NCBI GenBank assembly: GCA_964016885.1 | Contig: OZ024740.1 | Span: 42,470,001-42,534,000 of the forward strand | Reading direction: 5' to 3' | DNA: 64,000 bases | DNA from: Eledone cirrhosa | Lineage: Eukaryota | Shown: piece by piece, positions 7,170-63,765 of the stretch | How the letters are laid out: each line of letters begins with the position of its first letter | Numbering within the stretch: position 1 is the first letter of the stretch | The notes under the pieces: model-generated | The model's input: the letters and a program-made list of their open reading frames with translations, nothing else | Told to the model about the DNA's origin: nothing | The model's database searches: none | Made by a program: the position numbers and the translations under genes

Positions 7170-7357
7170 AATAATTGTTTCTACTTTTGGCACAAGGCCA
7201 GCAATTACCCAGTACATTACTGGTACTTTATTTTATCGACCTCTGTATGGATGAAAGGCAAAGTTAACCTCGGCGAGATTTGAACTCAGATCGTAAAGGG
7301 ACGTAACTATGCTGGAAAGCATATCCGACCCTCTACCGATACTGCCAATTCACCACC
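7170..7357 (-). mobile_element. tRNA-derived SINE
   Basis: Full-length match to the family consensus seen across the window. Confidence 0.9.
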
Positions 7358-7584
7358 CTCTTATATATATATATATATCAATAATATTAATATATATATT
7401 TATATGTATATATATACATGTGTATATATATATACATGTATATATATATATCTATCTATCTAAGGCGGGTAAAATTCCCGAGATCCATGGACCAGTTCTC
7501 TCCAGCGGTCTCTGTCCCTAATTATCGCTGCCATGTCCTGCGTCTCCAACAGACCAGTGTATGTCCTTAGGGCATCAACATACA

Positions 7585-15100: not shown

Positions 15101-17609
15101 TCCAATCGGGAAATCCAATCGGTACAGTTCAAAACGCCTGAGTAGGTTGGTGAGGCTCTTGCACCCTCCTCCCCTATCCGCTAACCCGACACAGTCCCAG
15201 TGTGCATCTAAGATCCCGTTCCAGTCGCCCACTAACACTAAAGAGCGGGACGTTCGAAGAAAAGTCTCCAGACGCCGGAAGAAATCACGCCGCCCACCTC
15301 CTGTCGAAAGAGCACAGCAACCCCTCCCCCGATCCCGGACAGCTGGGAGATGCGTACACATCGTAGCCACCGAAGATTGGTGCGAAGGCCCGTGCTTCGG
15401 AGATTCTGGTCTCGCTGATGACCACTACATCTATGTTTAGTGACCTGAGCTTGTTGAGCAGGTGGCCCTGCTTCCATGACGACCCCAATCCACGCGCATT
15501 TATGCTGCCTATTCTGAGTGAGGTCATGTTGAAATGGAGTGGAAAAGATGGGAGAGACAACTTACCATACTTCTCGTAGAGGAAGGTTTCTCCATCCTTC
15601 TCACTGCTTGTAGCCTCCTCCGGAAGGATGTCCTTAGAAATCCTCCTGGAGAGTGCTTGTCGGAAGTCTCCGACGTCTTTGGGGAATTTTTGTTTTAGTG
15701 TCGTGTACGTTTTCGGTGTGATGCGAGTGATTTGTATGTGTGGAGGTGGTGTGAACTTTTGGGTTGTTGTGTAGTCTTTTTCTGTGATGCCGGTGTTGTG
15801 TTGGATGTAGTTTAATAATTGGTTGTTGTTCAAATTTAATCCTGTGTAGTGTGTATCGTTTTGGTTGTTTTGTTTTGTTTGCGTTTGTTGTGGGTTTGTT
15901 TCTATTTCGCTTTTTGGTGACTTTTGTGGTGTTGGTGATGGTGATGTTGGGGTTAATGATGTTGATGGCGTTGGTGTTTGTGGTGATGGGGTTGGTGATG
16001 CTGTTGTGGATGGTGGCATATATGTCCTAACTTTTTTGTTTGATAATTTATTTGTTTCCCTCTGTATTTTGTTTTTGGAGGGGGAGTGAAGAGAATTCTT
16101 TCTTTTTTGGTTTCTTTTTTCCTTTTTTCCTGATACCGTTTCCCACTCCTCGTCGTCACAATCTGTCTCCAGTTGTGATAGGCCGAGGAGTGGAAAATCC
16201 TCCACAGGCGTTGGTTTTGGTTGTGGCGTGGTGGATGGTGTAGGCGCTGGTGCTAGTTCCGACGCGTTGGGTGGTGGTGGTGTTGGCTTTGCTACTGTTG
16301 CTGGGGTTGTTGCTGTTGTTGCTGCTACAGTTGTTGCTGCCATCTCTGCTGCTGGTGGTGCTGATGGTTGAATCACTGGGGTGGGTAAGAGAGGTGGCCT
16401 CAACCTTTTAGCCTGAGGGCGGAAAGCCCTTAGGTGGGTTCCTTCCACACAAACGACACACCTAGGCCTTCTGCCCTCGACGATTACGGTGAGGTGGTTG
16501 CCGTCAGTGAGGTCTATTACCTCTGGGATCTCCTCAATGCTTTTTTGGTCCGCTTGGATCAGGAGCTCCATCCCAAATCCGGACCAGTTCTCCTGCTTTC
16601 CTTTCTCTATTTCGATTATCTAGGCGTTGGCTTGGGTGCCGGCGAGGACGGCAGCTATTAGCCAGGGAATTTCGATGGCTGGTGGAATTTGGGTCACCCT
16701 GATCTTCACGAGTCTCTGGCCACAATAGCTTGGGACGAGTGTGAAGTCGTCACTTCTTAATGGGGCCATGGAGTGTTCTCTGGCCTCCTGTGGTGTTTCA
16801 AAGAACACGTCCACGGTTCCATATTTCTGCCCACGTCTAATGTTGTTTTTTTTTGCCCACACATATCCCAAAGCTTTTTGGATTTGGGACTCGGATGCCC
16901 GTTGCACTCGGCGCGATTTTATGTTAATCGTTCGATAAGACACGGTGCATAGGCGCCGATCGTCCATTTTATTAGGTGTGTGTGTGGGGGGGGGGACCCT
17001 GTACCTATCTTTCTTTACCATGTTTTCGGCTTCTTCTAATTCCTCCTGAGTTACCTGGAATGCTTCGCACTGTTTTGCTACTCTGACAAAACTCAGGGCG
17101 GTTTTCTTAATTTCCTTGTTGCTGTTGTTGTTATCGTTATTTTTGTTATTGTTAATTTTTGTTTCAGTTGTGGTGGTGGTGGCGCCAGTGGTGTTCGGTG
17201 TGGAAGAGTTCATTTTGGTTGAATTCATTTCGATATCACGAGTTAATTTATTTTTTTCTTTTGTTTCTGCTGTCGCTGTGGTGGTGGTGCGGGTGGCGTC
17301 TTTAACACCTGCAGTCATTGGTAATGGCAGGAAATGAATGTCTGCCTGAGGCAAATTTAAATTATTGCTACTGCTTATATTTTTAATGTTGGCAAACGTA
17401 GTAATATTTACAATGGTGGTGTCGGTGTGAGTTGTTAGTTTGTGAGGAAGGTATGACACTGAGTCGTCCGTGATTTTTCAAAGAAAAATCTTTGTTTGAT
17501 AATTATAAAAGTTTAAATTTTGGGCTCAAGGCCACAATCTTTCTGAGTGTCCTTTTCAGAAAACAATGTATCTGCATTTATATACAGTAAACAATAAATG
17601 TAGGTCGCC
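12116..17609 (-). mobile_element. Tx1/L1-clade LINE, probably full length, decayed (ORF1 plus APE-RT-zinc finger ORF2)
   Basis: ORF1 pieces with a VEGRRPRCVVC..H knuckle; APE SINARGL/ISET/VGDWN; RT KSPGLDCLP, VRQGCPLS, AYADD; CPRC..ETVLHALVQC. AATAAA (minus strand) at 12122-12127, followed by (ATT)n. Confidence 0.92.
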
Positions 17610-20888
<3,279 letters not shown>

Positions 20889-20940: not shown

Positions 20941-21292
20941 TAAAGAAGACGCACGAGGTGGTAGAACGTCACGAAATTGCTCCCGTAAGTTTTTTGATTT
21001 TTAACATATTTAAATCAATTGTGAAAGAACAATTCTTAGCACAAATGTTGCATAAAGGCACCGAATGAGGTCCCATAAAGTTTCGGATCCATATTATATT
21101 GTTGTATCGCTCAAATATTCAATTTTGTATTATATATTTTGTATTCAAAAAAAGAAAATGGTTATAAATGGAACAAAACACCCTCTGTCTACACTATATA
21201 GAACAGCGGCAATTTCAATTTCACCAACACCAGAAACTTGATACACTACCTATCCCATCACACTAAATATAACGGCAACTTCACCGGCATCA

Positions 21293-21487
21293 TAATAATT
21301 GTTTCTACTTTTGGCACAAGGCCAGCAATTATCCCAGTGCATTACTGGTACTTTATTTTATCGACCCCGTAAGGATGAAAGGCAAAGTTAACCTCGGCGG
21401 GATTTGAACTAGGATCATAAAGGGAAGTAACTATATGATTCAAAGCATGGCGCCCAACCCTCTACCGATACTGCCAATCCACCGCCA
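21293..21487 (-). mobile_element. tRNA-derived SINE
   Basis: Family match. Confidence 0.9.
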
Positions 21488-22081
21488 TCATAATAATAAT
21501 TACTATTACTATTGTCTCAAATTTAAAAAAATGTTTAATTCAAATTTTACGGGAATATGTCAACACAAAATATAATGAAAATATATATTAAACATACGAA
21601 CACAAACTCATAGATACTATATCAGTAACCACAACACCACCGCTGCCACTACCCCACCACATCCATCATCGCCGCCACCACTCATTCAAATGCTACTGAC
21701 ACTATTCCCCTGTTAACTTGAGAGAGAAAAGGGAAGGTGGTGGTAGCACTAGACAAGAGAGAGGCTAGCAAAAGATATAAATAGATTGACTTGGTGACCT
21801 TGCCACGGACAAACGTCTACATCAACAATTATGGGACTGCTGGCTCACCCCTTCCTCACCAACAATATAAAAAGCCCCGGCACCACCACCGACATAGCCA
21901 GCAGCAATAACAGCCAACTACAACAAAAAGTATATTATATTATTGTAATGCACTGGGTGATTGCTGGCCTTGTGCCTGGAGTGGAGACAATTATTAATAA
22001 TTTCATTCTTAAGCCACGCAATGCTCACATTAAGGAACCACTCATGATAATAACAATTTAAAAAAAACAACAAAAAGAAAA

Positions 22082-25000
22082 CCCCGTGACCAAGAAATAC
22101 CGGGATGGCGGCCGGCGGGGAATAGCCGTGTCTCTAGGGGAGAACGACCCCTCTAGTCTTGGTTGACACTCGTTCTAGAAGTGGTAACACGAAAAGATTA
22201 CCCCTTGGCGGATAAGGATAAAACGCGACAAAATAAAGTAGATGTCTAATGATGAAATCTCATACCGGATCGGCCGTCACCCGGGTAAAAAAGGACCGCG
22301 TCCCTCAGAGAGGAACCAGACTGGGGTCGAAAAATCAGCTAATGGTTCAAACCTTCCCATCACTTCGGAGCTGGAGACCTCCCATAACCGGAATACTCCT
22401 ACTGTTGGCCCTCCATGCTCACCACCAACAAATCCAAAGAAAAAGAGAGAAAAATGGTCAAGGGAAGATAATAAAGAAGTCCTTGAGGCTTTCTACACTG
22501 CCATGTACTACCCATCAAATACATCGAATACAGAGCAAACATATATCAACTGGAAAAAGAAACATCCCGAAAACAGAGGCTATATTGACAGTAACAAACT
22601 AGCCAATATACGAAGAAATATTGTAAGAAAAAAGTTACTAACTGATATAGAAATTGATCAGATCAAACTAGTAGCACAAAGTCAGCGAAGGGAAAATGAA
22701 GTATGTGTCAGTGAAAATGAGGTAAACTGTAACACTTCGAATCCTAGAGTTGGGGCGGAATCACTGGCAACAGAACAAATTAAAGAAAGGAGCGAAAAAG
22801 TTGAGGGAGTGCATGCTCAGGATGAAACTCCAAATGAAAATAATGAGATCGGAAATGATAAAGAAATGAATGAGAATGAACTTGCCAACTTGAAGGATGA
22901 AATTATGATCGAATGGATGAAAATGAAAAAATCTGACATGGGGGAACGAGACACCCTCCCTAAGATCTAGAACTCCAAACAGAACCAAAAGATAATACAC
23001 ACGACTAACATAATTCTCAAAAACATTATCATCACAAACAAACTAAAGATTACTGACTTAAATCATCTCTATTATGCATCGGCTAAAGTCACCACTCACT
23101 TATGTGGAGTGAAGATGAAAAAACAAAGGAATTCCCACAAGAAATCTACTTGGCAAGATAACATCAATCGCCAAATAAACCTTCTCCGATCTGGAAATCC
23201 CCAGGAAAAGACAAAATACAAAATGTTTGGATAAATGCCTTCACAGAGTCTCATGAGCTGTTAGCCCAACTTTACAATGAAATAGTTAAGGAGCCAGAAA
23301 AGATACCAGCATGGCTAGTTAACGGCATTACATTCCTGCTTCCGAAGAATGATGAGACAAACAATCCCAAAAATTACACACCGATAACTTGCTTGACCAC
23401 AATGTATAAAATGTTAACATCAGTCCTAACTGAATATACATATGACCACCTGATAACAAATGACCTATTTCCCATTGAGCAGAAAGGGTGTAAACGAGGC
23501 TCATATGGCTGTAAGGATCAGCTCTTGGTTAACAAAATGATACTGGAAGATTGTCATAATAGACACAAAAATCTATCGATTGCTTGGATAGATTATAAAA
23601 AAGCATTTGATGGTTTGCCACACAGTTGGATTGAAAAATGTTTAGAGATTTTCAAAATATCCCCCGTTGTCAGGAGGTTTTTGTCATTCAGTATGAGGAC
23701 ATGGAGAACGACACTCCTTTTGAATAGTGAAACAAAATCACTGGAAGCTGGAGAAGTTAACATTAATTGTGGAATTTTTCAGGGTGACTATTTATCACCG
23801 CTTTTATTCTGCATCGCCCTTATACCATTAAGTAAAATGCTCAATGAAACAAAACATGGATATAAAGTCTATGACAAAACCATTAATCACTTGTTCTACA
23901 TGGATGACCTGAAACTATTTGCAAAAAATGATGAACAATTGCAAGGGCTATTATCCACTGTGAAGCAGTTCAGTGATGACATTAAAATGGAGTTTGGACT
24001 AGATAAATGCGCCAAAGCAACGTTCACCAGAGGAAAGTTGCTGAAGAGTTCAGACATTAATCTTGATCGGAGGAACGTGATAAGAGAACTTGATCGAGAA
24101 AAAACTTACAAATATCTAGGTGTTTGTGAAGGAGACGGAATCGAGCACTCGACAATGAGGGAAAGGATAAGGAAGGAATGTTACCGCAGAGTAAGAGCAA
24201 TCTTAAGAACGGAATTGAATGCAAGGAATAGGATCGATGCCATAAACACGCTTGCCATACCAGTAGTAACCTACAGTTACAATGTCATCAACTGGTCAAG
24301 CACAGAGATCCGTAGGCTGGATACAAAAATCCGAAAATTCTTAACCATGCACAGAATGCATCACCCTAAGGCAGACATAGATAGAATATATCTCCCTAGG
24401 AAAGAAGGAGGACGTGGGTTAATCCAGTTAGACATTGCGTTGAAAACTGCAACAATTGGATTATCCACATATCTAAGGGAATCACATGATTGGATGATCA
24501 AACTCGTTTTGAAACACGAAAGCACCAAAAGATCATATTCCATTACAAAAGATGCACAAAGATACAGTAATGGACTACAAATTTCAGAAGTCCCATTTAC
24601 TGCTGAAATGGAAAACACAGAAAAAGCAAAGCAGGTAAAAGTAACTGCAAAGAAAGAACTGCTACAGAAACTGGCTAAGAAATGGCAAGAAAAGCCTCTG
24701 TATGGAAAATACCCAGAGCGAGCTAACAATCCTGATGTTGACAAAACTTTAACCCATCAGTGGTTGGCATCTTCTGAACTGAAATCGGAGACTGAAGGAC
24801 TGATTATATCAGCACAAGATCAGTGTCTGCCAACAAAGAATTACCAAGCCAACATAATAAAAAATGGATGCAGCCCATTATGCCGTGTATGCAAAAAACA
24901 ACCAGAGACCATTGACCATATAATTTTAATGTGCAGTCCTATAGCTCCAACCGAATACCTAAACAGGCATGACAGAGCTGCACAATACATACATTGGATA

Positions 25001-25588
25001 ATGTGTAAGCATTTTGACCTGCCCCATCAAAAGAATTGATGGGAGCATCAACCACCTCCCATACTTGAAAAAGATCACATTTCAATCTTGTGGAACTTTA
25101 GCATCCAAACAGACCGAAAAATAGATGCAAATAGACCTGATATAATATTGAAGGACTTTAAAAAGAGGGTATGCCTGCTAAGTGATATGTCCGTTCCAAT
25201 AGACAAGAATGTATCTATAAAAACATTTGAAAAATTGAGCAAGTATAAGGACCTGGAGATAGAAATTGGAAAAATGTGGAAATTGAGAAATAAAACAATA
25301 CCAGTGGTTGTAGGCGCTCTGGGAATGATACCTAAGGGGTCTAATGATTACTTATCGCAAATCCCAGGAGAACTGCGTATAGGAGAAATACAAAAGATAC
25401 TACTAATGGGAACTGCCCATATACTAAGGAAGATTCTGTCAATATAAGTACATCACAAGTCTAAACACTAAAGATGCCTGTGTGAGTATGTATGTTCTTT
25501 CTTGAACATGGCGGACCTTGTTGTCTCTGAAGGTAACTGGTTGTGACTTGGTGATAACTCGTTGAACATAAAGCAAGATAAATGCAAC
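22082..25588 (+). mobile_element. Second R4/Dong family, 5' end retained, internal deletion near 23190
   Basis: N-terminal KKREKWSREDNKEV ORF; RT GIFQGDYLSP/YMDD; CRVC..ETIDHI..C; NRPD; (TAA)n at the 3' end. Sequence jumps to WKSPGKD near 23190. Confidence 0.93.
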
Positions 25589-25606
25589 TATAATAATAAT
25601 AATAAT

Positions 25607-26724
25607 AAACTGGTCAAGCACAGAGATCCGTAGGCTCGATACAAAAATTCGAAAATTCTTAATCATGCTCAGAATGCATCACCCTAAGGCAGATACAGAT
25701 AGAATATATCTCCCTAGGAAAGAAGGAGGACGTGGGTTATTCCAGTTAGACATTGCGTTGAAAACTGCAACAATTGGATTATCCACATATCTAAGGGAAT
25801 CACATGATTGGATGATCAAACTCGATTTGAAACACGAAAGCACCAAAAGGACATACCCCATTACAAAAGATGCACAAAGATACAGTAATGGACTACAAAT
25901 TTCAGAAGTCCCATTTACTGCTGAAATGGAAAGCACAGAAAAAGCAAAGCAGGTAAAAGTAACTGCAAAGAAAGAACTGCTACAGAAACTGGCTAAGAAA
26001 TGGCAAGAAAAGCCTCTGTATGGAAAATACCCAGAACGAGCTAACAATCCTGATGTTGACAAAACTTTAACCCATCAGTGGTTGGCATCCTCTGGACTGA
26101 AATCGGAGATTGAAGGACTGATTATATCAGCACAAGATCAGTGTCTGCCAACAAAAAATTACCAAGCCAACATAATAAAAAATGGATGCAACCCATTATG
26201 CCGTGTATGTAAAAAACAACCAGAGACCATTGACCATATAATATCAATGTGCAGTCCTATAGTTCCAACCGAATACCTAAACAGGCACGACAGAGCTGCA
26301 CAATACATACATTGGATAATGTGTAAGTATTTTGACCTGCCCCATCAAAAGAATTGGTGGCAGCATCAACCACCTCCCATACTTGAAAAAGATCACATCT
26401 CAATCTTGTGGAACTTTAGCATCCAAACAGACCGAAAAATAGATGCAAATAGACCTGATATAATACTAAAGGACTTTAAAAAGAGGGTATGCCTGCTAAT
26501 TGATATGTCCGTTCCAATAGACAAGAATGTATCTATAAAAACATTTGAAAAATTGAGCAAGTATAGGGACCTGGAGATAGGAATTGGAAAATGTGGAAAT
26601 TGAGAACTAAAACAATACCAGTGGTTGTAGGCGCTCTAGGAATGATACCTAAGGGGTCTAATGATTACTTATCGCAAATCCCAGAAAACCCGCGTATAGG
26701 AGAAATACAAAAGATAGTACTAAT
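25607..26724 (+). mobile_element. 5'-truncated tandem copy of the second Dong family, also cut at its 3' end
   Basis: Near-identical to ~24290-25407 and starts directly after the first copy's (TAA)n. Confidence 0.93.
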
Positions 26725-26959: not shown

Positions 26960-27018
26960 TATATATATATATATATATATGAGTATTGAAGTTTGCTTGA
27001 AGCATTGTGGAATAATAA

Positions 27019-27311
27019 GATATATTTTCTTTAGGTCGTTTTGGAAGCCTCAACAATGCAGATGGGTAAATCTCCGGGTAACAAAATCCGGTTGTGAAGA
27101 GAGAGATGTAAGTGAACGTAGAATGAAGGTAACTCTATCTCGTGTTATTATTTTCATTTTATTATTTTTTACGCTCTTTCCTACGTTCTTCTACACACTA
27201 TACATCTCATTCTACATTCACTTACATCTCTCTCTTCACCACCGGATCTTGTTACTCGGAGAATTACCCATCTGCATTGTTGAGGCTTCCAAAACGACCT
27301 AAAGAAAATAT

Positions 27312-27314
<3 letters not shown>
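27019..27314. repeat. Fold-back insert between (TA)n tracts (arms 27019-27126 and 27207-27314)
   Basis: About 108-bp reverse-complement arms with few mismatches and an 80-bp spacer. Confidence 0.92.
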
Positions 27315-34380: not shown

Positions 34381-35127
34381 AGCATATATAATGTCATCAT
34401 CACTGCAATAGTGGTTTGTCATGCTGGAGATGATAGTTGTATAGCAAGACAAGTTGCTAGTTTGAAATAGTGTGTAGAGCTCACAGACCTGGGCGAATGC
34501 GTCAATAAAAATAACCATTTAGACAAAACATGGATTCGGAGGAATTTTTAAATTCTTCATGGAGTTAAAACTGTCAGCCTGTTTTATAATATGCGGTCAC
34601 GTGGCCGAAACATTGTAGAAAGTTCCATGGGTGAGAAAGGAGCTGATCTAAAAATTTGATATGAGAGTTGACAGGTGATTGTATCCATCAGAGAACGTAA
34701 ATATGAGATACAAATATGTCGTTTAGAGAGAAAGAGGAAGAGAGAGTGAGAGAGAGAGGGTAAAGAAACCGAGGGAGAGAGTGGAGGAGAGAGAGGGGGA
34801 GAAGGGGAGATATAGAGAGAAATGATAGATGGATATAGAGTGAGACACAGAAAAAGAGACAGGGAGAGAGATCATGTTCAATGGACAGGACAGATGTTAT
34901 TAGAAATCAAATGTACACGTGACAAGGTGAATCGAACTTCTACTGAGTCCAATTACAGGGTGAGTCTACTTTCCAGCAACTCTTACTAGAAAAATCGTAG
35001 ATTTTTCGCGTAACGAGGAATACATTCTATTTCTGTGTGTTCTATTTTTGAAGAGATCTGGCTATGATTAAAACGTGCTTAAAAGTAAGGCAAGCCTGTA
35101 CGTCATTCCAAATTTCAATATAACTTA

Positions 35128-35317
35128 ATAACTGTTTCTACTTTAGGCACAAGGCCAGCAATTACCCAGTGCATTACTGGTACTTTATTTTATCGACCCC
35201 GTAAGGATGAAAGGCAAAGTCAACCTCGGCGGGATTTGAACTCAGATCGTAAAGGGACGTAACTATGCTGAAAAGCATGGTGTCCGACCCTCCACCGATA
35301 CTGCCAATCCACCGCCA
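35128..35317 (-). mobile_element. tRNA-derived SINE
   Basis: Family match. Confidence 0.9.
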
Positions 35318-35873
35318 TTATAATATAACTTAATAACAATAGATTATACGCGTTATAGTTTGCATATTCCTGCATTAAATGGTATAAGAACACACCATTG
35401 CCTGTACGAATACCGTTTGTGATTTAATAACTGCAAGCTTCAGCTATTACCGTCCAATACCTGCGATGAAATCAAAATTAATTACTGTATGATATAATAA
35501 GCGTAGAAATATTTTACTTTCCTGTATGATAAGGTACAGCATGAGGGATAGAAACTAGGCAAGTCGTGCTGTTTGTAATAGGATGTGTGTGTGCATATGT
35601 ATATAAGCGCGCATATATTACCAATATAATTATTACAAAACCTTGAAAACAAAATTGTCAAAATAAATGTGAAATATATAGTAAGCATAATATGCACAAA
35701 TAAGCATATTATACAAGTTATGTAACATAACACGACGAGGAATCAATGACAAACATGTAAAGCAAAGCGAAGCAACATTATAACAGAGAATATACATTTC
35801 ACTTAGAGTAATGAGACTCTCAGATATCAAGTAGAACACTTGCGAGATATCTGAATATGTAATTGAATGTAAT

Positions 35874-37752: not shown

Positions 37753-39094
37753 ATAATGCGTACACATATACATGCATTAATATATTCGAAATGCGTGAGA
37801 GAATAAGGTTTTTCAGTGCCAGTAATTTGGTGTTAATTCCAATTCTGTATATATGATTTATTGATTATACGCCGGGCACTGTACTAAGATCTTTGGATCA
37901 ATTCTATGTGTGATGAAAATATATAGGTAATTATTCACAATAGAGCGAGATAAAGTATAGTATATATATATATATATATATTATCTATCTATGCTGATAT
38001 GTTCTCAATGGCTAGATTTATCTCTTATCCGATTAATGCCATGGAACGCGGAGAAATGCATTCGCCTGTAGAAACCCCAGTTAGCTTGTTTGTTTATTTC
38101 GCCTATCCTGTTACTAAATCTGAAGTTTGGTTGACAGTTAAAAAGGAAAAGTAAAGTTATATATAGTTTGAATTTCAGCAATCGCTTTCGATATGTCAAT
38201 ATATATAGCTGAAAGCATTAACAGATTCCAGTGTTTATCTTTCTGCAGTGTTGCTAAGAAATGCTTACTTATATCTAATCTAATCATTAGTTCGTTAGTT
38301 GTCAAGGGATCTAAGAGAGTAGCTGTTGTTAAACGTCAAGATTCCTCTAACAGAGAAAAGCTATCGTGAAAAACCCTCTAATAATTACTATCCCATCCTT
38401 TTCTTTTCCCACAGCGTCCATTTTGAACCACATTCTCAAATCAATCCTTCCTTTTTTTATGAGACGATTGAGTGTTATATGAGGGAGATTTGGCTGCTAT
38501 TCCTCGTAATTCGAACGTATGTGCCCCTTGTCGGAAATATATTTTATGCATCGCACCAATGAAATTTCCTGCTGAAGGATAAGAGGGCGGTAAAGAATGA
38601 ATGTAGAAAGCATCTTCATATAATCAATATTTGTAAAAGAACTGATAGGGTTGAACCAGTTAAGAAGTGGGTTAAACGGTAGAAACAAACATTATTCAAC
38701 AAATGTCAGTTGGATTATATAATGTTTGCAATAAAAAAAAAAGAAAATGAGAAAAATATTTGATAATGAAAGTAAGAAAAAGGTGAAGGTGCAAGCAGCT
38801 GACTCTACACCCAATTCTAGGCCATATATCTCAGCTGTGCCCTGTGGGTGAAATGGCAAATGTATTGCTGCGGTGAACAACCGACGAAACCCGTTTCATC
38901 AGAGGCTCCACCCTTACAATTTTGCGAATTAAAAATATTGCTGACCCATTTCAACCACTCTAGATTTTAAATCCACGTACAAGTATCTGCCTTCCCCCAT
39001 ACTGGAGTTAATATTACATTACAGTGGAGTTATTGAAAGGCTATAACACTACACAAATAAATAATTGTAAAATGTAATGATGATGATGATTGTA

Positions 39095-39518
39095 ATAATA
39101 ATTGTTTCTACTTTTGGCATAAGGCCAGCAATTATCCCAGTGCATTACTGATACTTTAATTTATCGACCCCATAAGGACGAAAGGCAAAGTTAACCTCGG
39201 CGGGATTTGAACTCAGACCATAAAGGGCCGTAATTCTTTGCTGCAAAGCATGGCGTCCGACCCTCTACCGATACTGCCAATCCACCGCACTTTTATAATA
39301 ATAATAACAATGGTTTCTGATATACGTACAAGGCCAACAATTTTGGCGGGAGGGGAAAGTCGAGTAAATCGACCCCAGTACGTTACTGGTGCTTTATTTC
39401 ATCGACCCTGTAAGGAAGAAAGGCAAAGGTAACTTCAGTGGGATTTGAACTCAGAACGTATAGTGCTGTAACTATATGCCGCAAAACATGTTGTCTGCTG
39501 CTGCCAATACACCGCCCT
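39095..39518 (-). mobile_element. Two tandem SINEs (main and variant subfamily)
   Basis: Family match; same pairing of subfamilies as at 3409-3730. Confidence 0.88.
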
Positions 39519-41976: not shown

Positions 41977-43860
41977 ATAGATGGGTATATCATCTTATAG
42001 AGAATTGTTCTAATGAGTTATGAGGGATATTGGTTTTGTATTTAATGTAAATAAATATGAAGTTAAATTAAATTAAAGTAACTGAGTTAATAAGAATATT
42101 TATATTTATATGTTTTAAAATGGGAAGATACGGAAAAACTCGGGTTTAATTTATTTATTCGTTAGTGTGAGACTATTTAGTAAAATAAGTATAGATGTTG
42201 AAAGATACATTTAGCCAGAATCAGTTAGTGGTTATAAATCTATTGAAAATATTGAAAAAATATTGAGAAAATATTGAAAAATATGAGAACATTTTTTTTA
42301 AAATAATTTATAAGAGATAAGTAATTTTTAAAGAAATAAACATTAAAGAAATAAAATAAAGAATAAAAAATTATTAAAATTAAAATTACAATTAAAATTT
42401 AAAAAAAATTAGAATTATATACGTATATATTTTATGAAACTTTAAGAAGTGAAATTATAGCAAATGTTATAGATATTATGATTTAGAGATATCAATATAT
42501 TAAAAGCAAGTGGATAAGATTGTTATGCAAATAAGTAAAAATATTATAAGTATAATTATAATTTATATATAGTTCTTAAAGGCCTCAAGAATAATATAGA
42601 CAATCTTGAAAAAACTGAGAAAATCCTCATAAAATCTGACAAAACTAACAATCTATACGCAATGCAAAAGGACGAATACAATAACCTTATATTGAAAGAA
42701 CTAAGAAAAAACTACAAAATAACAACTAATGAAGATCTTGAAATGGCAAATAGAGAAGCTTCTGAAATAATTCATAAATTAGGCATCGAAAATAGGACCG
42801 TACGCTATACCTAGAAGACCGAAAATTAACCTGAAATACCTAAAAGAAACTTTGAAATAGAACTACCAGTTAGATTTATAGCACCATCTAAATCAGAATT
42901 AGGCACAGTTAGTAAACATATATTAGATAGCATCATACCGCAACTTAGAGAAATATCTTACCTAAAACTATGGAACGGTAATAACGAGATTATAGATTGG
43001 TTCAATAACATAAAATTTAAACATAACGAAAAATTCATTCAATTGGATATTGCAAACTACTACTCCTATATTACTCCTAGTTTATTTAATAAAGCTCTTA
43101 TCTATGCATCTAAACATACAGACTTATCTAGCGAAGAAATGCATATCATTTTAACTGCACGGAAAACTTTAATTGAATTCAACAATCAACTCTGGACTAG
43201 AGCTGATAGAAAATCTAATTTTGATATCACCATGGGATCATCTGACTCAGCACAAATAACGGATCTTGTGGGGCTATTTATTAATAATACACTGCATAGA
43301 AAACTACCAGAGATGACCGGTGGTTTATATCGTGATGATGTGCTGCTTTTAATTGAAAATCATAGTAATTGTGAAATTAATAGGAAAAAAAACTCCATAA
43401 TACAATTCTTCAATAGCTACAACCGTAAGTCGGAAATAGAGAATAACTATAAAATTGTTAACTTTTTAGACGTAACATTAAACCTTAACACAGGGCTCCA
43501 TTCCATAAAATTAATGAGAATCTAAACTATGTAAGTTTTAACTCTAATCATCCTAGATCTATCAAGAGCACTATTGTCAATTCTGTCCAACAACGTATTT
43601 CACGCATCTCCGCTAATAAAAACATTTTTAACGATAAGGCAGAATATTATAAGGAAGCTTTAAATAGAGCAGGGTATATAAATAAGATTAAATACATCGA
43701 TAACAGTAATAAGGCAAATAACCCTACTAGTAATTATAATTATAATAAAAAAATTAACTTAAACTCTAAACTAACAGAAGAAATAGAACTAGAAATATTA
43801 TTTGGTACTCACCCCCATTCTCATTAAGCGTAACAACACCTTTAGCAAAGCTATTCTTTA
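41458..43860 (+). mobile_element. Penelope-like element: inverted 3' UTR/pLTR (~41458-42570) joined to a decayed RT (~42575-43860)
   Basis: KSDKTNNLY, APSKSELG, DIANYYSYI, FDITMGSSDSAQITDLVG, GLYRDD, VNFLDVTL, RNIIWYSPPF. Confidence 0.85.
41501..41564 (-). ncRNA. Type I minimal hammerhead ribozyme, family A, intact core
   Basis: Reverse complement reads tattttat CTGATGA aagcgtacta atgttgtct tggtaccctt GAAA tatata TA ataaaata. Confidence 0.85.
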
Positions 43861-44766
43861 AAGCACAAATACAAAACCAATATCCCCCATAACTCATATA
43901 TATACATTTATACATACATAGATTCATAAATACAGACCTACAATAAACAATAACTATACGTTTGATATCTATAGTACCAAAGCGCATATACGATTTTCTA
44001 CAACAAAGGCAAACCTATTGGAACTATAGTGTAATCTAGTATTACATTTCTAATTATACATAACAACACATATATTTATGTAATAGTTGATTGCTATGTT
44101 AACACTATCATTCCTTTTATCTGTTGAACATAACTTACTGTATCTATTTGGCGAGAAATGAGTTATTTAGCCTCAGATATTACTGGTACCGGAAATAATA
44201 TTTATCAAATCTGAAATAAACAAAGACACGGGTTGCGGAAAGATTTGAGCACAAGATAAGGAATCCTGAAACTGAATATTATAATAACTCATTTCCGGTT
44301 CTTTTGTTATTACAACTATCTACGCATATCTTTTAATCCCCTTTAAACAAAAGTGTTATCTCATTTGTTCACATACAAAATTGTCTTTCAAGATACGTTT
44401 CCAAGTACTGCTGATTCTGAATACATTTCATAGTAGTTATCAATTTTTCATCTCGTTTGATGTACCTTTTAGTATTCTGTTTAGGAAAGGAAAAGGAAAG
44501 ATCAAATGGTGTCTTCACAAAGCTTGTACATATATCAGAAAACTAAATAAAATGATAAGTACACAAATTAATTCATAGCTGTCTTTAAATACAGAAACTT
44601 ATCTAGAAGGATGTTTGCTTTCCTATTTCTATGGCCGCTTCCGGAGAGGTAGATATAACTATATGTTACGTTAAAATTCGATCCATGTATATACATACGA
44701 TACTGCCAACATACAATATGTTCTTTATTTGAAATATTTCCTCTCTGTCACCAACCCACGCACTCT

Positions 44767-46834
<2,068 letters not shown>

Positions 46835-47112: not shown

Positions 47113-47172
47113 TATTTTGTTATACGTATTTCAAGGACACAAAGTTTTTGCGTGCTTTCATCAGATAAAATA
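47113..47172 (-). ncRNA. Type I minimal hammerhead, family A relative, bordered by a SINE (47175-47350)
   Basis: Reverse complement reads tattttat CTGATGA aagcacgcaaa aac tttgtgtcctt GAAA t acgt a TA acaaaata. Confidence 0.82.
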
Positions 47173-47425
47173 TTATTGTTTCTACTTCTGGCACAACGCC
47201 AGCAATTATCCCAGTGTACTGGTACTTTATTTTATCGAGCCCGTAAGGATGAAAGGCAAAGTTAACCTCAGCGGGATTTGAACTCAGACCATAAAGGGCC
47301 GTAACTCTTTGCTGCAAAGCATGGCGTCCGACCCTCTACCGATACCGATCCATAAAATATAATATTTGGTGTTAAGATATTGACATACCTTAGCATAGTC
47401 TTAATAGTATAAGCTCGCTAACGGC

Positions 47426-49639
<2,214 letters not shown>

Positions 49640-49641
<2 letters not shown>

Positions 49642-50007
49642 TAGGGTTAACAAGTTATCGTTATAGGTAATGCAGTTAGAGGTTGTGGCTACTCTGTCTT
49701 GTGGATAGTTTTACCATAGGGCTTTGTTTGACTTAACAAGATCTTTCCATAGTTAGGTAGCGAGTTCGCGGAAATTCCTATGCAGGTTATACTTGGAGTA
49801 TTAATAGTGAAAGATTGAAGAATAACATGGTCGGCTGTACTACAAGGGGCTTTATTTCAAGTATTAACAATTGTTTCATTGATCAGGTGAGTCTAGAGGA
49901 AACTTCGAGTGATTAGCGGCCTCTAGACTCACCTGATCAATGAACAATTGTTAATACTTGAAATAAAGCCCCTTGTTGTACAGCCAATCATGTTATTCTT
50001 CAATCTT

Positions 50008-50014
<7 letters not shown>
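49640..50014 (-). mobile_element. Family F fold-back insert (arms 49804-49899 and 49920-50014)
   Basis: Reverse-complement arms; GAAA c aatt g TT half-HHR just outside the axis; (TA)n flanks. Confidence 0.9.
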
Positions 50015-50079
<65 letters not shown>

Positions 50080-50084
<5 letters not shown>

Positions 50085-50515
50085 CAAAATAATAACGAAT
50101 GAAGATATTCACATAACCAAAATATATGCTTTATTATATATATTTCGAAGGTACTGTGTTGTTTTTTCAGTGCGTCCTCGTCAGATAAAATATATGATTT
50201 GATATATGACATACCTCTACGGCCTTGATAGTTCAACTCCTGTATTGCCAATACAGGAATTGAACTATCAAGGCCGTAGAGGTATGTCATATATCAAATC
50301 ATATATTTTATCTGACGAGGACGTACTGAGAAAACAACACAGTACCTTCGAAATATATATAATAAACCATATATTTTGATTATGTGAATATCTTCATTTG
50401 TTAATATTTTGAATAATATAAAAAAACTCCAGTAAAATATTTAACTGTTGAGTGCTTTTAATTTATTGTAAAATTTGAATTCATTGAGTAATCAATGAAC
50501 CATATTAATCTTTGG

Positions 50516-50520
<5 letters not shown>
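50080..50520 (+). mobile_element. Fold-back insert with axis at 50248 and a complete hammerhead in each arm (50130-50189 minus, 50307-50366 plus)
   Basis: About 168-bp arms. tttat CTGACGA ggacgtactg agaaaacaaca cagtaccttc GAAA tatata TA ataaa. Confidence 0.9.
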
Positions 50521-50550
<30 letters not shown>

Positions 50551-50664
50551 CAAAGGGATATTTAATTTGTTGGTAATTCAGCAAATATCTTTATAGCATA
50601 TTCGAAACACTCGATAGGTTTTCTGGAGTATAATATCAATGATATTATAAATGTAAACTAATAA

Positions 50665-50725
50665 TATTCTATTATATATATTTCAAGGGTACCAAAACTT
50701 TGGTACGCACTCATCAGATAAAATA
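50665..50725 (-). ncRNA. Type I minimal hammerhead, family A, intact core
   Basis: Reverse complement reads tattttat CTGATGA gtgcgtaccaaa gt tttggtaccctt GAAA tatata TA atagaata. Confidence 0.82.
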
Positions 50726-51129
50726 CTAAGTTTGTTATATAAATAGTGACATACCCAGGAATGAGACCTGAACGGTTCAAGTTCAGTCTGGATAGTGAAA
50801 AGAAATCGGGAAACAGGGAAAAGGGGAAGAAAGGAAAAAACAAATATTTCAAATTATTTCGATGAATATGCAAATGGAGTTGAAGCCGTCGGGGTCCTGA
50901 CTCTTTTCCTATATATATATGTATAATATAAGGAACTGTTTCTTTGTTGTTATTCATTATTTTTATTAATTTATCTTGACTCTGTTTTCCTGTGTTTTTC
51001 ATCGAAAAAATTTTGAATACATCTTCTCTTTTCATGATATTTGGATTACATTGAGTTCTTCATACGTATTGGACACTACCGTATATTTTGATAGATTTAT
51101 CTACATATATATATATATATATTTATATA

Positions 51130-55418
<4,289 letters not shown>

Positions 55419-55433
55419 GACTCACACACACAT

Positions 55434-55504
<71 letters not shown>

Positions 55505-55506
<2 letters not shown>

Positions 55507-56402
55507 TAGAATACTGGAAGGTAATATCCGTATGGTAGAGCACTCAGTCCATGGGACGAGTTTGGTAGAAGTAGTAACACAAAGGTTAGTTCACCATACC
55601 GAATACAATTGTTTCACTTTACCGGATCTTCAGCTTGTACTGGTCATGGTTATACGGAACAGGAAGAACAACCGTATGAACGCGCATGCGCAGAAACGAT
55701 ACAAAGCGATACAAAGTCACAAGCGAAAGGTGCAAGGGCGATAACTACGAAAGTCCGGAAAGGTATTCGAGTTGATTAAAAAATTAGAATGTTGCTGTTA
55801 TTCAATCCGGAGCTTTGTAGTTTTTCAAGAGGTGTTTCCAGACATGTGGGAAACGCGAGAAGATTTCATAACTTGAATTCATGCAATCACTATTGCGTAA
55901 TCGCGTTAGAATATTTATCCTTTCTTCAATACACAGTCCACAAGACGGATTGCGTCTTGCGTATGGCTAGGACTTAGTGATGGCTTTCAATTCAACGGAG
56001 TAGTCTATACCTGAGTCCTTGCGGGACCATACATGGCTCGCGGATTACGTTGATGATCGTTTGTCCGGGTACCTAAAGGCCGACTGATGGTTCAGGAAGC
56101 GTTCCTTAAATAGGCTTTCTGCCATACCCACATAGGATTTGACCTCCTGTGGTTGATTTGGTCGGATGGAAGTGACTACAGCTTAATAAACTACAGCAGG
56201 TGTGTTGCATTACTGTTGAAGGAGACAGGCTTCAGACTTTCAGCAAGAGCATCCTGGTGGGGTTTCAACCAACACACCTGCTGTAGTTTATGAAGCTGTG
56301 GGCACTTCCAGCAGACGAAATCACCCACAGGAGGTCAAATCCTATGTTGGTATGGCAGAGGGCCGATTTAAGGAACGCTTCCTGAACTATCAGTCGACCT
56401 TT
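55505..56402 (-). mobile_element. Truncated PLE (GIY-YIG remnant plus 3' UTR) with a fold-back of coding sequence (arms ~56075-56207 and 56270-56402); decayed HHR at ~55597-55640
   Basis: PAVVY..EVKSYVGMAE..FKERFLNHQSAF..CGLCIEE. Reverse complement of the UTR reads CTGAAGA tccggtaaagt GAAA c aatt g TA. Confidence 0.82.
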
Positions 56403-56544: not shown

Positions 56545-56860
56545 CGTTCAAATCCGGCCAAGGTTAACTTTGCCTTTCATCCTTAAGGGGTCGATAAAAT
56601 AAAGTATCAGTAATACACTGGGATAATTGCTGGCCTTATGCCAAGAGTAGAAACAATTATTTTTAGGTCATTGGATTGGCAGTATCGGTAGAGCGTCAGA
56701 CACCATGCTTTGCAGCATAGAGCTATAGCCCTTTACGTTCTGAGTTCAAATCCCATCAATGTTAACTTTGCCTTTCATCCTTAGGGGGTCGATAAAATAA
56801 AGTACCAGTAATGCACTGGGGTGATTGCTGGCCTTGTGCCCAAAGTAGAAACAATTATTT
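56545..56860 (+). mobile_element. Two tandem SINE copies
   Basis: Family match; tggcagtatcgg A box and gagttcaaatcc B box. Confidence 0.88.
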
Positions 56861-58129
56861 TTAGGTAGAAAAAAAATGAATACAAAGGTAATAAAAAGAA
56901 GAAACAATTATTTTTATGGACGATTTTTAGTTAAAGCCTTTTCTCCGATCACAACAGTTAATATAGAATAAGTCACATTATCTAAGAGATAACAAATACC
57001 TTGGGATTCATCAGTATTAGTATAGAAACTGATATTGACCTTCAATATGTTGATAGACTTTATATATACTATATGAAATATGTTTGTTTCCCGACTCTGG
57101 TATATTCAAATTTTTTCTTTTTCATAGATTTCAAAAATTTACTCCTTTAATTTTTTTTAAACATTCACAAATCTGGTTTTTTTTTCAAATAATCCCACAA
57201 CAAAGCCTAAACAGATGAACAAAAAAGTAACTCGGCTGTTTCTGACTTGCTTTAATATGCATAATCGACCGTTATTTCGTTAAACCGAAAATGGGGTGAA
57301 AGAATTAAATTAGAGATTGTTATCTAATTATAGAAATTTGATATCATGATTGCTTCCTCTAATATGTGTGCTTTTCATTCTTCCGAGATCTCACAGGTTC
57401 TGTGTCTGTAATCTGATCAGTGACTGAAATTAAATCTCATGCTGAAACGTAATTTTATGACCATCATGTGATCCATTCTAGCTTTCTCTCTACTGCTGTA
57501 ATATAACAATTCTATACAGGTTTTTCACTGTTAGGATTTAAAACTTAGACTCCAATACATATTAATAAACCTGTACCTTATCTAAATCTATTTGTAAAAA
57601 AAAACATGTGCGTTGTCAAATAACCAACAAAGACATTAATCATTAGATTAACAAACGGATGAATTACATGTTTCTAATGTATTGTTTTAAATCTGCATCC
57701 AATTTTGTTGTTCTTACTCGGAGAAGTCGAATATATTCTCACAAATGGCTTCAGGGAAACACAGGTTAAACACGAGCCTCGACTGCTTCAGTCGCTGTCC
57801 TCATGATGCAAATTTATAGAAAATGCTCGAGACCGGAATAACTGAATTTATCTTCTTCGACTTTACAACTTAAAACCCCTTGCTCTCTGTGAAACACAAG
57901 TTGCCTACCATGAGTTTTCTATAGTTACTTCCCCCTTTCACTTATATTATTTAAGGTATTTGATTATTTGTAGATAAGCACTCCTATACCTTCAAAACTC
58001 TCCACGGTGGGAAGCAATTTTTAATATTATGACAGACTTAATGAGTTGCAGTAAACAACCCAACGAAACGTATGTACCTGCACATGCCATTGTTGGAACT
58101 AATTATATATATATAAACATATATATATG

Positions 58130-58323
58130 AGTTCCGGGTTCAATCGAGGGTAAGCACAGTAAGTATTCAATACATCAGTAGAGTGTAATCATCATGTTTA
58201 ATATAGAAATGACCTCTACAGGACTAGAACTGTTTCATTCAAAAGAATTCACCAGGAAAGCCCCGACGCTTTCTTTTGAATGAAACAGTTCTAGTCCTGT
58301 AGAAGCCATTTCTATATTAAACA

Positions 58324-58327
<4 letters not shown>
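58130..58327 (-). mobile_element. Family H fold-back insert (arms 58191-58247 and 58271-58327)
   Basis: Reverse-complement arms; GAAA cagttctag TC just outside the axis; TA flanks. Confidence 0.85.
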
Positions 58328-58399
<72 letters not shown>

Positions 58400-58401
<2 letters not shown>

Positions 58402-58590
58402 CGAAGGAAATGTGGTAAGGAACCAGGTGGACCATAACGCACCGAAGTACTCAGTACTTAGGGTAGTAGAGTGGGTAATAGGAACAAGTAAGACCCCGAC
58501 GGCTGAGCTCAAGCCGTTTCGACGGCTAATTCTGTACTGAATTAGCCGTCGAAACGGCTTGAGCTCAGCCGTCGGGGTCTTACTTGTTCC
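58400..58590 (-). mobile_element. Family E fold-back insert
   Basis: Hairpin at 58481-58590; (TA)n on both sides. Confidence 0.92.
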
Positions 58591-58655
<65 letters not shown>

Positions 58656-58881: not shown

Positions 58882-59815
58882 TAGATATGCCTTCTTCATT
58901 TTAATATAGAAAGAATATAGTTATTCCCTACTAACTTATTGAGTACCATATTTAACTGTGGCATTTCCCAACCATACTTAATTACACACACACACTCACA
59001 GACACACACACACAGAGGGACACACACAGACACACACACAGATACACACACACTGACACGCACATACACACTGCCACGTACACATACACTCACATATATC
59101 TATTTATATATATATATTCCCAAAACGCACCCATTGTTAATGTAATTATAACAATCACCATTGGTTAAATAATGCCAGTTTGCTTTTCACAAGATGACCC
59201 TTTGTAGAGAGTCAACACAATGTGTTAATTAAATGAAATACACCCCAAAGTAACGTTTGAATTGTAATCGATGTGATTTATTACTTTTAAAGTAAGGGCA
59301 AGCTTTCATTCAAAAGGTTACATGTAAACCTGTAGTAATTCACATGTCTTACAAAAGTGTAGTTTATCCTCGCGAGCATTTGAAAGTATCCTTTACACAG
59401 GAAATTAAAATCATAATTTGCTATCTACCATCTGTCTATTATAAACACATTCGTGCACATACAGGTGATTGATAAATATTCGCTGTCTACTTTCTCCATA
59501 TATATATATATATATATATATAAATATTTACATATACGGCGGGTGGCCGCGAAGAGGCTGCTATTATTTATTTATTTACAGTTTCTTCATAGGTGCCTTT
59601 TAATCTTATAGCCTGGTCTAATTGATTTTTTTTTGTGTGGTTAATTATGCTAATTGGGAGAGGAAATGATGTATATATATTATCAAATGATTCTATGGAC
59701 ATACTTTACTTTATATATATATATATGTGTGTGTGTTTGTGTGTGTGTGTTAGGTAATTCAAAAGGAAAGGCAAAGGAAAAAAGAGTGCTCTATGCATAG
59801 CACAGAGCTATTTAC

Positions 59816-59961
59816 TTAGAAAGTGAACAACACATAATATAACTACTCCATTACTATCTATAACATCTCTATCTGACGAACGATACAGACGTATATTCTC
59901 ATCTGTGATCCAGAAACCTTTGATAATGGAGTAGTTATATTTTGTGCTGTTCACTTTCTAA
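59816..59961. repeat. Fold-back (arms 59816-59853 and 59924-59961) with an HHR-like core in the spacer
   Basis: CTGACGA at 59873, gatacaga/tctgtgatc stem, GAAA at 59913. Confidence 0.7.
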
Positions 59962-60098
59962 TTTTATATATATATATGAAAAAAGTCAGGACCTTTTTCT
60001 TTTCCTATTACCCACTCATCAATCCATAGTATCGAGTACTCTGGTGCGTTATGGTCCACCTGGTTCCTTACCACACTTCCTTCGTTATATATTTATAT

Positions 60099-60643: not shown

Positions 60644-60645
<2 letters not shown>

Positions 60646-60840
60646 CGAAGGAAATGTGGTAAGGAACCAGGTGGACCATAACGCACCAAAGTACTCAATA
60701 CTTAGGGTAGTAGAGTGGGTAATAGGAACGAGTAGGACCCCGACGGCTGAGCTCAAGCCGTTTCGACGGCTAATTCTGGAAGCGTCCAGAATTAGCCGTC
60801 GAAACGGCTTGAGCTCAGCCGTCGGGGTCCTACTCGTTCC
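60644..60840 (-). mobile_element. Family E fold-back insert
   Basis: Perfect hairpin at 60725-60840 with a 4-nt agcg loop. Confidence 0.93.
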
Positions 60841-60876
<36 letters not shown>

Positions 60877-60948
60877 ACGAAGGAAGTCTGGTATGGCAAG
60901 GGACCAGGTGGACCATATATATATATATACATATATATAAATATATAC

Positions 60949-62486: not shown

Positions 62487-62488
<2 letters not shown>

Positions 62489-62678
62489 AACCAGTAAGAC
62501 CCCGACAGCTGAGCTCAAGCCGTTTCGACGGCTAATTCTGGAGTCCAGAATTAGCCGTCGAAACGGCTTTAGCTCAGCTGTCGGGGTCTTACTGGTTCCT
62601 ATTACCCACTCTACTACCTCAAGTATTGAGTACTTTGGTGCGTTATGGTCCACCTGGTTCCTTACCACATTTCCTTCG

Positions 62679-62680
<2 letters not shown>
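62487..62680 (+). mobile_element. Family E fold-back insert
   Basis: Hairpin at 62487-62599 plus tail. Confidence 0.92.
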
Positions 62681-62732
<52 letters not shown>

Positions 62733-62737
<5 letters not shown>

Positions 62738-62824
62738 TCACACTCGTTCAGCGCGTCGGTAGGAGTTCTCCTACATGGATATAAAGTAGTGGCCGTACTC
62801 GAAAACGAGTTGGCAGCCATCATA

Positions 62825-62902
<78 letters not shown>

Positions 62903-62995
62903 TATGATGGCTGCCAACTCGTTTTCGAGTACGGCCACTACTTTATATCCATGTAGGAGAACTCCTACCGACGCGCTGAACGAGTGTGACTTTTT
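62733..62995. repeat. Inverted repeat (arms 62733-62830 and 62897-62995) whose spacer is pure (TA)n
   Basis: aaaagtcacactcg...cagccatcatatattta, then (TA)n, then taaatatatgatggctg...cgagtgtgactttt. Confidence 0.93.
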
Positions 62996-63313
62996 AGTCC
63001 AGCCAGCGACTTGAATACTCTGGTACAAACACTACACTTGTGACAATTATTGACACATAGTGCTGGGCCCATGGTACCATGTGACGACAAGTGCAGAGAG
63101 ATCTCCAGATATAAAGCAATGCCCGTGCCGTGAAGCTTTTATAGTGACCAAAGGCACTGCACAAAGCCAGTCCCACTCTCTTAACCAAGATGATATTTAC
63201 CAAAAAGAAAAACATGTCAACATCATTGGATACCATCAGAGTTGCAGGTGTTATATCAGAGTTTTCCTTCTCCTAGAATTCTGCCTTGACAAAGGTTAAG
63301 GGGTCATCTCTCC

Positions 63314-63357
<44 letters not shown>

Positions 63358-63361
<4 letters not shown>

Positions 63362-63765
63362 CGACGCCCTGTTTACCGTTAGGAACCATAGCCCCCGTAG
63401 GGTAGAGAACCTTAAAAAACATATACACAGGTTCTTCAAGTCATACGGCCTATCCGTAACTATGGACCTCAATCACAAGGTTGTCAACTTCCTGGACGTG
63501 ACTCTGGAGTTGAGTACTGGCTTATACAAGCCGTACCATAAGCCTGGAGAGTGCCTCTCTTATATTAATTATGCCTCTCACCACTCTAAGCAGACTCTCA
63601 ACTCCATAGTCTATAGTATCTCACATAGAATCTCGAGACTATCCGCCAATGAGGCTATCTTCAACCAAGCGGCAGATTACTACAATAGGGCCTTGATAAG
63701 CGCCGGCTTTAACCGAGAAAATTCCTACATCCCTAACGATAGCTCTAGTAAGCCATACCTATAAC
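63358..63765 (+). pseudogene. Penelope-like RT C-terminal fragment starting directly after (TA)n
   Basis: VVNFLDVTLELSTGLYKPYHKP..YINYASHH..RISRLSANEAIFNQAADYYNRAL; paralogous to ~43450-43700. Confidence 0.85.

Follow-up and report, generated by a model that had tools for sequence, protein, structure and literature searches.

Structure of the fold-back F

The stretch of Eledone cirrhosa DNA analysed here (64 kb, hereafter the window) is AT-rich and contains 127 TA arrays and many retroelement remnants. One of its fold-backs, F, is bordered by (TA)n on either side and is made up of the following parts.

49591–49637, no strand: left (TA)n array flanking F, the presumed target
49638–49803, minus strand: one-sided 166-nt extension ('tail') of the long arm, reaching the left (TA)n array
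49804–49899, minus strand: long (tailed) arm, 96 nt; the minus strand is the element sense
49866–49877, minus strand: hammerhead-like 3′ half GAAAC-AATT-GT/T; the same 11-mer lies behind a core at 55615
49900–49919, no strand: unpaired 20-nt spacer containing the head-to-head junction
49909–49941, plus strand: weak candidate for the native stem II in the short-arm reading, with CGA before it
49920–50014, plus strand: short (tailless) arm, 95 nt, with GAAAC changed to GAAC and its CACTAT end flush with (TA)n
50012–50080, no strand: right (TA)n array, common to F and the neighbouring fold-back K (50080–50517)

The arms, put at about 95 bp in a preliminary description of this DNA, measured 96 and 95 nt. 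They are 96% alike, differing by three substitutions and one 1-nt deletion, and the folding of F (z = −20.8) was equalled in none of 100 shuffles. The preliminary description had correctly read the end of the short arm as CACTAT/ATAT, where the arm abuts (TA)n, but had overlooked that the long arm runs on for another 166 nt, as far as a further (TA)n array. The flanks show no mirror symmetry. Long perfect palindromes beside simple repeats are prone to error, and F might be an artefact of sequencing or assembly caused by hairpin reads. However, there are four differences between the arms, the flanks lack mirror symmetry, and the same layout was found in unrelated families of the window, ORF-bearing ones included, and such an artefact is therefore extremely unlikely.

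F occurs as a single copy in the 64-kb window, and its 166-nt tail has neither a notable reading frame nor a further copy there. Within F itself we found no notable frame and no profile match to RT-endonuclease, and the missing ORF is what is expected of a stub. An exact 28-mer of F had 0 matches in bacterial and archaeal genomes, and no relative of F was matched in phages and plasmids. Searching the same bacterial and archaeal genomes with the Penelope-like element (PLE) protein of the window gave 49 pattern matches, of which 0 were confirmed. The GAAACAATTGT motif had 0 matches in the supplement of PMC8557442, a text in which line breaks may conceal a match. With this one copy in the window, and without a relative in any of the collections covered, F reveals neither its core nor its parent element.

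On the two strands, local alignment of F with family E, another fold-back family of the window, gave p-values of 0.46 and 0.78, a result that bears out the earlier view that the two share no sequence similarity. In 14 tests against seven other families, the best uncorrected p-values were 0.043 (family L) and 0.047 (family K). Renewed comparison of F with L under four scoring schemes gave p = 0.012–0.16 for the tail and 0.03–0.05 for the arm, and 0.20 with the common motif taken out; we do not regard this as homology.

A hammerhead-like half-motif in F

In the left arm, read outward from the axis on its minus strand, 22 paired nt from the inner end are followed by GAAAC-AATT-GT-T at 49877–49866, which agrees with the 22-bp stem and GAAA-c-aatt-g-TT reported previously. 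The GAAA box, a palindromic loop III and an NUH site are all present in this arm. What had been missed is the loss of one A from the right arm (GAAC), which leaves the motif in the left arm only. CTGANGA is absent from both strands of F, as had been noted for the CUGANGA half, and there being no core, no 5′ strand of stem I is in place.

The strict half-motif (GAAAC) started within 30 nt of the inner end in 44 of 20,000 dinucleotide shuffles of the arm, and the relaxed half-motif in 275 of 20,000; in the real window, the backgrounds were 0.3% and 2.0%, respectively. Since the relaxed pattern is frequent across the window (40 perfect matches), its position near the junction is what matters. Moreover, the window has a second occurrence of the 11-mer of F, at 55615 (minus strand), with 0.08 copies expected per shuffled window. 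Among published Hydra-clade ribozymes, GAAAC..GT-H is found in 26 of 26 rows and cleavage follows GTT in 10 of 26, as it would in F (PMC8557442); GAAAC and GT are separated by 4 nt in F and by 5–6 nt in the 26 rows. Despite this shorter spacing, the sequence features make it probable that the motif represents a 3′ hammerhead half from a PLE, in line with its earlier identification as part of a hammerhead. Cleavage in an intact ribozyme of this kind would come after 49866. Self-cleavage of the present product is not expected, because it is without CUGANGA and stem I.

Rfam scans of the whole window (E up to 1; 81 hits) and of 49380–50900 (E up to 10; 41 hits) reported no hammerhead family, even over the complete motifs of families J and K that lie in the latter stretch, which counts against the hammerhead reading. 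The Rfam matches over F are of the generic microRNA-hairpin type, with scores under the gathering thresholds.

Three further candidates were rejected. CTGATCA in an arm of F, taken as a mutated core, would leave stem II with 2 nt and no stem I; TTGATCA does not match the pattern of the U3-A8 core variant for which it was considered; and a second GAAAC, on the plus strand at the start of the spacer, lacks a core and would have a G where cleavage should occur.

Fold-backs with one-sided extensions

A systematic scan of the window returned 14 fold-backs, corresponding to 12 loci in nine families after three overlapping rows at 46171–46791 were merged. Family letters other than E and F are labels made in this analysis. 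In nine of the 12 loci, one arm ends no more than 3 nt from (TA)n and its partner reaches (TA)n through an extension of 38–166 nt (M27, 38; G, 61; E, 78–80 in four copies; H, 89 with a CA run included; K, 101; F, 166 nt). The remaining three do not obey this rule. A looser form of it is matched by 0.85% of random unmasked 200-nt stretches.

F could instead be a fold-back or MITE DNA transposon with a TA duplication (TA/GTGAAAG...CTTTCAC/TA) that lies beside an unrelated 166-nt segment and contains GAAAC by chance. Ends at 49807–50011 formally allow such a duplication, which is indistinguishable from the TA array, and with one copy of F the link between arm and tail is unreplicated. In addition, Tc1-mariner elements and MITEs are described as active in Octopus vulgaris (PMC13282606; its supplement mentions neither hammerheads nor palindromes). 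This origin is nevertheless quite unlikely. The half-motif has a chance of just 0.2–2%, the one-sided tail is also found in five other families and is fixed in four of four E copies, and a 166-nt segment between two TA arrays would need a separate origin.

Family E comprises four palindromes (49386–49555, 58401–58592, 60645–60840 and 62487–62679), in which stem III is stable and the tail is fixed at ~80 nt, and three one-ended fragments (50880–50911, 59975–60086 and 60877–60918). The short arm terminates at one identical base in all four palindromes and in the solo fragment at 50911. The four junctions and centres are all different, with spacers of 1–13 nt, and variants at three sites are common to both arms of a copy, the arms being more alike within than between copies. 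Fixed ends, differing centres and arm-shared variants suggest that each palindrome was apparently newly made from one template; gene conversion could also yield the concordance of arms. (TA)n arrays are fragile, and the palindrome might have formed only after an ordinary truncated PLE stub had inserted, when a (TA)n cruciform underwent break repair or template switching during replication. The likeness of the arms in F and within E copies would suit this course of events, but it does not predict the short-arm end at the same base in four copies and the solo fragment, and we regard it as very unlikely.

Both 3′ ends were also seen in the J/K family. Family K (50080–50517), a 337-nt palindrome with a complete hammerhead in each arm, is homologous to J repeats at 50717, 47164, 41556 and ~7092. 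In families G (58129–58326) and H (59727–59964), the spacer is in sense on the tailless arm, which rules out snap-back of the tailed cDNA alone as their source. Assigning the spacer to the tailless arm in every case was tried as a rule and rejected, as it fails at 920–1992 and 55504–56402, where the tailed arm carries coding sequence.

Remnants of Penelope-like elements in the window

The ORF-bearing 3′ end of a PLE, with a head-to-head inverted truncated copy, lies at 55504–56402 (region to 56440). Its endonuclease frame is broken (tblastn E = 1e-22), and by its sequence it appears Hydra-like. The 3′ UTR of this element contains a CTGAAGA core and, 18 nt on, the exact 11-mer of F with the same loop III. 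This hammerhead is situated ~170 nt past the endonuclease stop codon and 111 nt before a TA array, and its stem II is decayed. Beyond the 11-mer, F and this element do not align significantly (p = 0.20).

A PLE endonuclease end with GIY-YIG at 1852–1682 and a head-to-head inverted terminal repeat was found at 920–1992 (to 2030). Its tail extends 87 nt into (TA)n, and a short repeat was inserted later. The PLE protein at 52611–53726 carries a GIY-YIG domain and a CX4CxxC linker, a linker that marks Neptune and Nematis (PMC8557442), and its closest named relatives are from Argonauta and Octopus. Frameshifted remnants of Neptune-like PLE RT and GIY-YIG occupy 51389–53729 and 47463–48107. No copy matching the J-family ribozyme repeats was present after the ORF at 51389–53729 or immediately before it, and the repeats could therefore not be linked to this ORF. 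A second class of PLE remnants (42539–43889, 63300–63761, 30577–29378 and 56317–55805) matches proteins of ~700 aa, and its motifs, compared by eye, seem to resemble the Hydra-clade alignment.

Position of junctions relative to stem II

The preliminary description considered F, like E, to be centred on stem II of a hammerhead, a claim that is not supported in that form. With a 22-bp stem and a 20-nt loop, native stem II of F would span 64 nt, against a core-to-GAAA distance of 11–33 nt in six complete motifs folded from this window and a stem II of 3–7 bp in 26 of 26 published Hydra-clade rows (PMC8557442 supplement). The 22-bp stem of F is probably a duplication product and not native stem II. 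The candidate for the latter at 49909–49941 (−2.3 kcal/mol) folds no better than shuffles (z = +0.26), and its stem was equalled in 114 of 1,500 shuffles under the GA condition and in 511 of 1,500 without it. All that F retains of CUGANGA is a terminal CGA where this candidate begins.

Family G is the most informative case, and the one in which a junction most clearly falls at the stem II base. Here a full stem II, closing exactly on GAAAC and with GA before it, is contained in the spacer and short arm (−10.4 kcal/mol; 1 of 1,500 shuffles as good). Since it is complete within these two parts, the axis of G is not the stem II loop, and its placement means that one arm stopped where stem II begins at its base, while its partner ended 11 nt above GAAAC. 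In H, the spacer contains a whole decayed hammerhead; the tailed arm ends within 2 nt of the predicted cleavage site, and the other arm spans the whole core. The arm end at this site in H, a single case, hints at a self-cleaved template. The axis of K is ~65 nt upstream of its hammerhead core, and the junction at 56075–56402 falls in endonuclease coding DNA. Centring on stem II is thus no general rule; junctions near stem II occur in E, F and G but lie elsewhere in other families.

Three of the nine families (E, F and G) join within 30 nt of GAAAC..GTH, with a background of 2.2%. The binomial p for this clustering is 0.0008, or 0.006 when both arms are allowed, values that are optimistic because the pattern was picked after the cases had been seen. 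The first half-motif pattern, which demanded a palindromic loop, had a near-junction match in F only among the 14 fold-backs and missed E and G; the broader pattern, which catches both, was adopted after that outcome.

These junctions could originate from a single cDNA that self-primes by folding back onto a long native stem II, so that the axis is the stem II loop; F would still be derived from a PLE or retrozyme. Self-priming has been suggested for palindromes at PLE junctions (PMC3846280), and both the clustering near GAAAC and the E spacers of merely 1–13 nt are in its favour. However, it requires the 64-nt stem II of F discussed above, it is at odds with the axis of G and with the four differing centres of E, and in G and H the tail on the spacer-less arm demands a second priming anyway. 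We consider self-priming on stem II unlikely.

Origin of F

According to the reading that we prefer, with a probability of about 0.7, F is a non-coding, extremely 5′-truncated insertion of an endonuclease-bearing PLE into a (TA)n microsatellite. The head-to-head fold-back layout with a one-sided tail is the already published structure of PLE insertions, which show an inverted 5′-truncated copy, a tail of 30–40 nt on one side and (TA)n targeting (PMC8557442). Palindromes have also been described at PLE head-to-head junctions (PMC3846280). The suggestion in the preliminary description that the geometry of E and F reflects a common mechanism and not descent fits well with this structure. Both arms of F are truncated to <100 nt, and the entire insertion is therefore near-palindromic. 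Among the observations that count against the PLE reading is the 166-nt tail, which far exceeds the published 30–40 nt and is joined to the arm in a single known copy.

How a PLE would produce such an insertion can be outlined, and we give the detailed route that follows about an even chance. The protein that nicks both strands of the TA array would be an RT-GIY-YIG enzyme of a PLE (Hydra-like or Neptune-like), working in cis or in trans. Each nick would then prime one cDNA at a separate start site on the RNA, an internal site for the short arm and the tail end for the long arm. Both cDNAs would pass the uncleaved cleavage site and stem III and halt within or at the ribozyme fold, 22–42 nt upstream of GAAAC. 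Finally, microhomology annealing, or a tailless cDNA snapping back, would join the two cDNA 3′ ends, and fill-in would follow. In families such as G and H, snap-back of this kind might be combined with a second priming event for the tail. It has been reported that a PLE protein cleaves and extends both target strands, that reverse transcription has two internal start sites bounding the tail, that the protein is a predicted dimer and that the main template is uncleaved RNA (PMC11167929). All these properties fit two cDNAs joined head-to-head. F would then be an integration fossil and, if transcribed, would give a long double-stranded RNA hairpin.

More tentatively, the hammerhead fold itself may be a preferred stop and joining point of PLE reverse transcription, with a protein dimer priming two cDNAs from the two TA strands at the two start sites of the element, and with both cDNAs tending to halt, and to be joined, at stem II or the core; we think this rather doubtful at present. 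If it were true, ribozyme-dead palindromes of 130–400 nt would be mass-produced across unrelated PLE families, and the ribozyme would shape insertions even without cleavage. Concomitantly, the genome would carry a large readable record of twin priming and a source of hairpin RNA.

Comparison with known systems

F resembles the published insertions of Hydra, Neptune and Naiad PLEs in its head-to-head copy, one-ended tail-like extension, (TA)n and 3′ hammerhead-type motif (PMC8557442, PMC3846280), but differs from them in being without ORF and core and in its tail of 166 instead of 30–40 nt. In another cephalopod, Octopus bimaculoides, Hydra-1_Obim is listed with a (TA)n target and cleavage after GTT (PMC8557442). 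With minimal type I hammerheads, as characterized in PMC4209133, F shares GAAA, a palindromic segment of 15.2-16.2 and loop 3, and an NUH site. Unlike these, F is a half motif without CUGANGA and the 5′ strand of stem I. Opposite-strand pairs of hammerhead motifs 100–700 bp apart have been reported (PMC4209133); F has two half-motifs ~65 nt apart across the junction, one of them minus an A. Like the non-LTR retrozymes presented in bioRxiv 10.64898/2026.07.22.740005, F is short, non-coding, presumably related to PLE terminal repeats and equipped with a hammerhead-type motif. Those retrozymes, however, are non-autonomous PLE derivatives with head-to-tail tandem units and complete ribozymes, while F is head-to-head and has none complete.

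The 5′ inversions of L1 arise by twin priming, in which two target nicks prime two cDNAs that are joined head-to-head and represent different parts of one RNA. Both arms of F, in contrast, copy the same stretch, which would require two RNA copies or one reused. The origin of the inverted 5′ copies and one-sided tails of PLEs, as well as the role of the hammerhead, is stated to be open in PMC8557442. We found no report of PLE inversion junctions clustering at the ribozyme or of PLE twin priming in a search that was thin on subscription literature and on early Penelope work.

On its own, F is most likely one more dead PLE stub, and its value lies in the set. In tiny two-armed insertions, a few hundred bases preserve the two start sites together with the two stop sites. 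Searches for ribozymes would overlook such stubs, which might be catalogued wrongly as MITEs or microRNA hairpins. Several stubs of the window break at the ribozyme, which may be a hint on how PLEs insert.

Other repeats in the window

A few further elements were observed. The fold-back M27 (26981–27314) has 98-nt arms, a 100-nt spacer and the canonical 38-nt tail, with no hammerhead boxes near its junction. At 62734–62993, perfect inverted arms of 95 nt surround a central TA array; this is a different geometry, possibly that of a MITE. The region 45811–46791 consists of a ~290-nt tandem and inverted repeat with a tRNA-like segment (Rfam tRNA, 38 bits, 46002–46066). Judging from translations only, several remnants of non-LTR retrotransposon RT are present (9086–11763, 12359–16619, 18318–20834 and 22242–26724), and a 1.1-kb direct duplication lies among them at 24290–26724. 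Moreover, a dispersed, possibly SINE-like repeat of ~190 nt recurs in copies that are 80–92% identical (1484–1683, 7170–7360, 21292–21506, 35126–35340, 39093–39311, 47168–47345, 56546–56866 and others).
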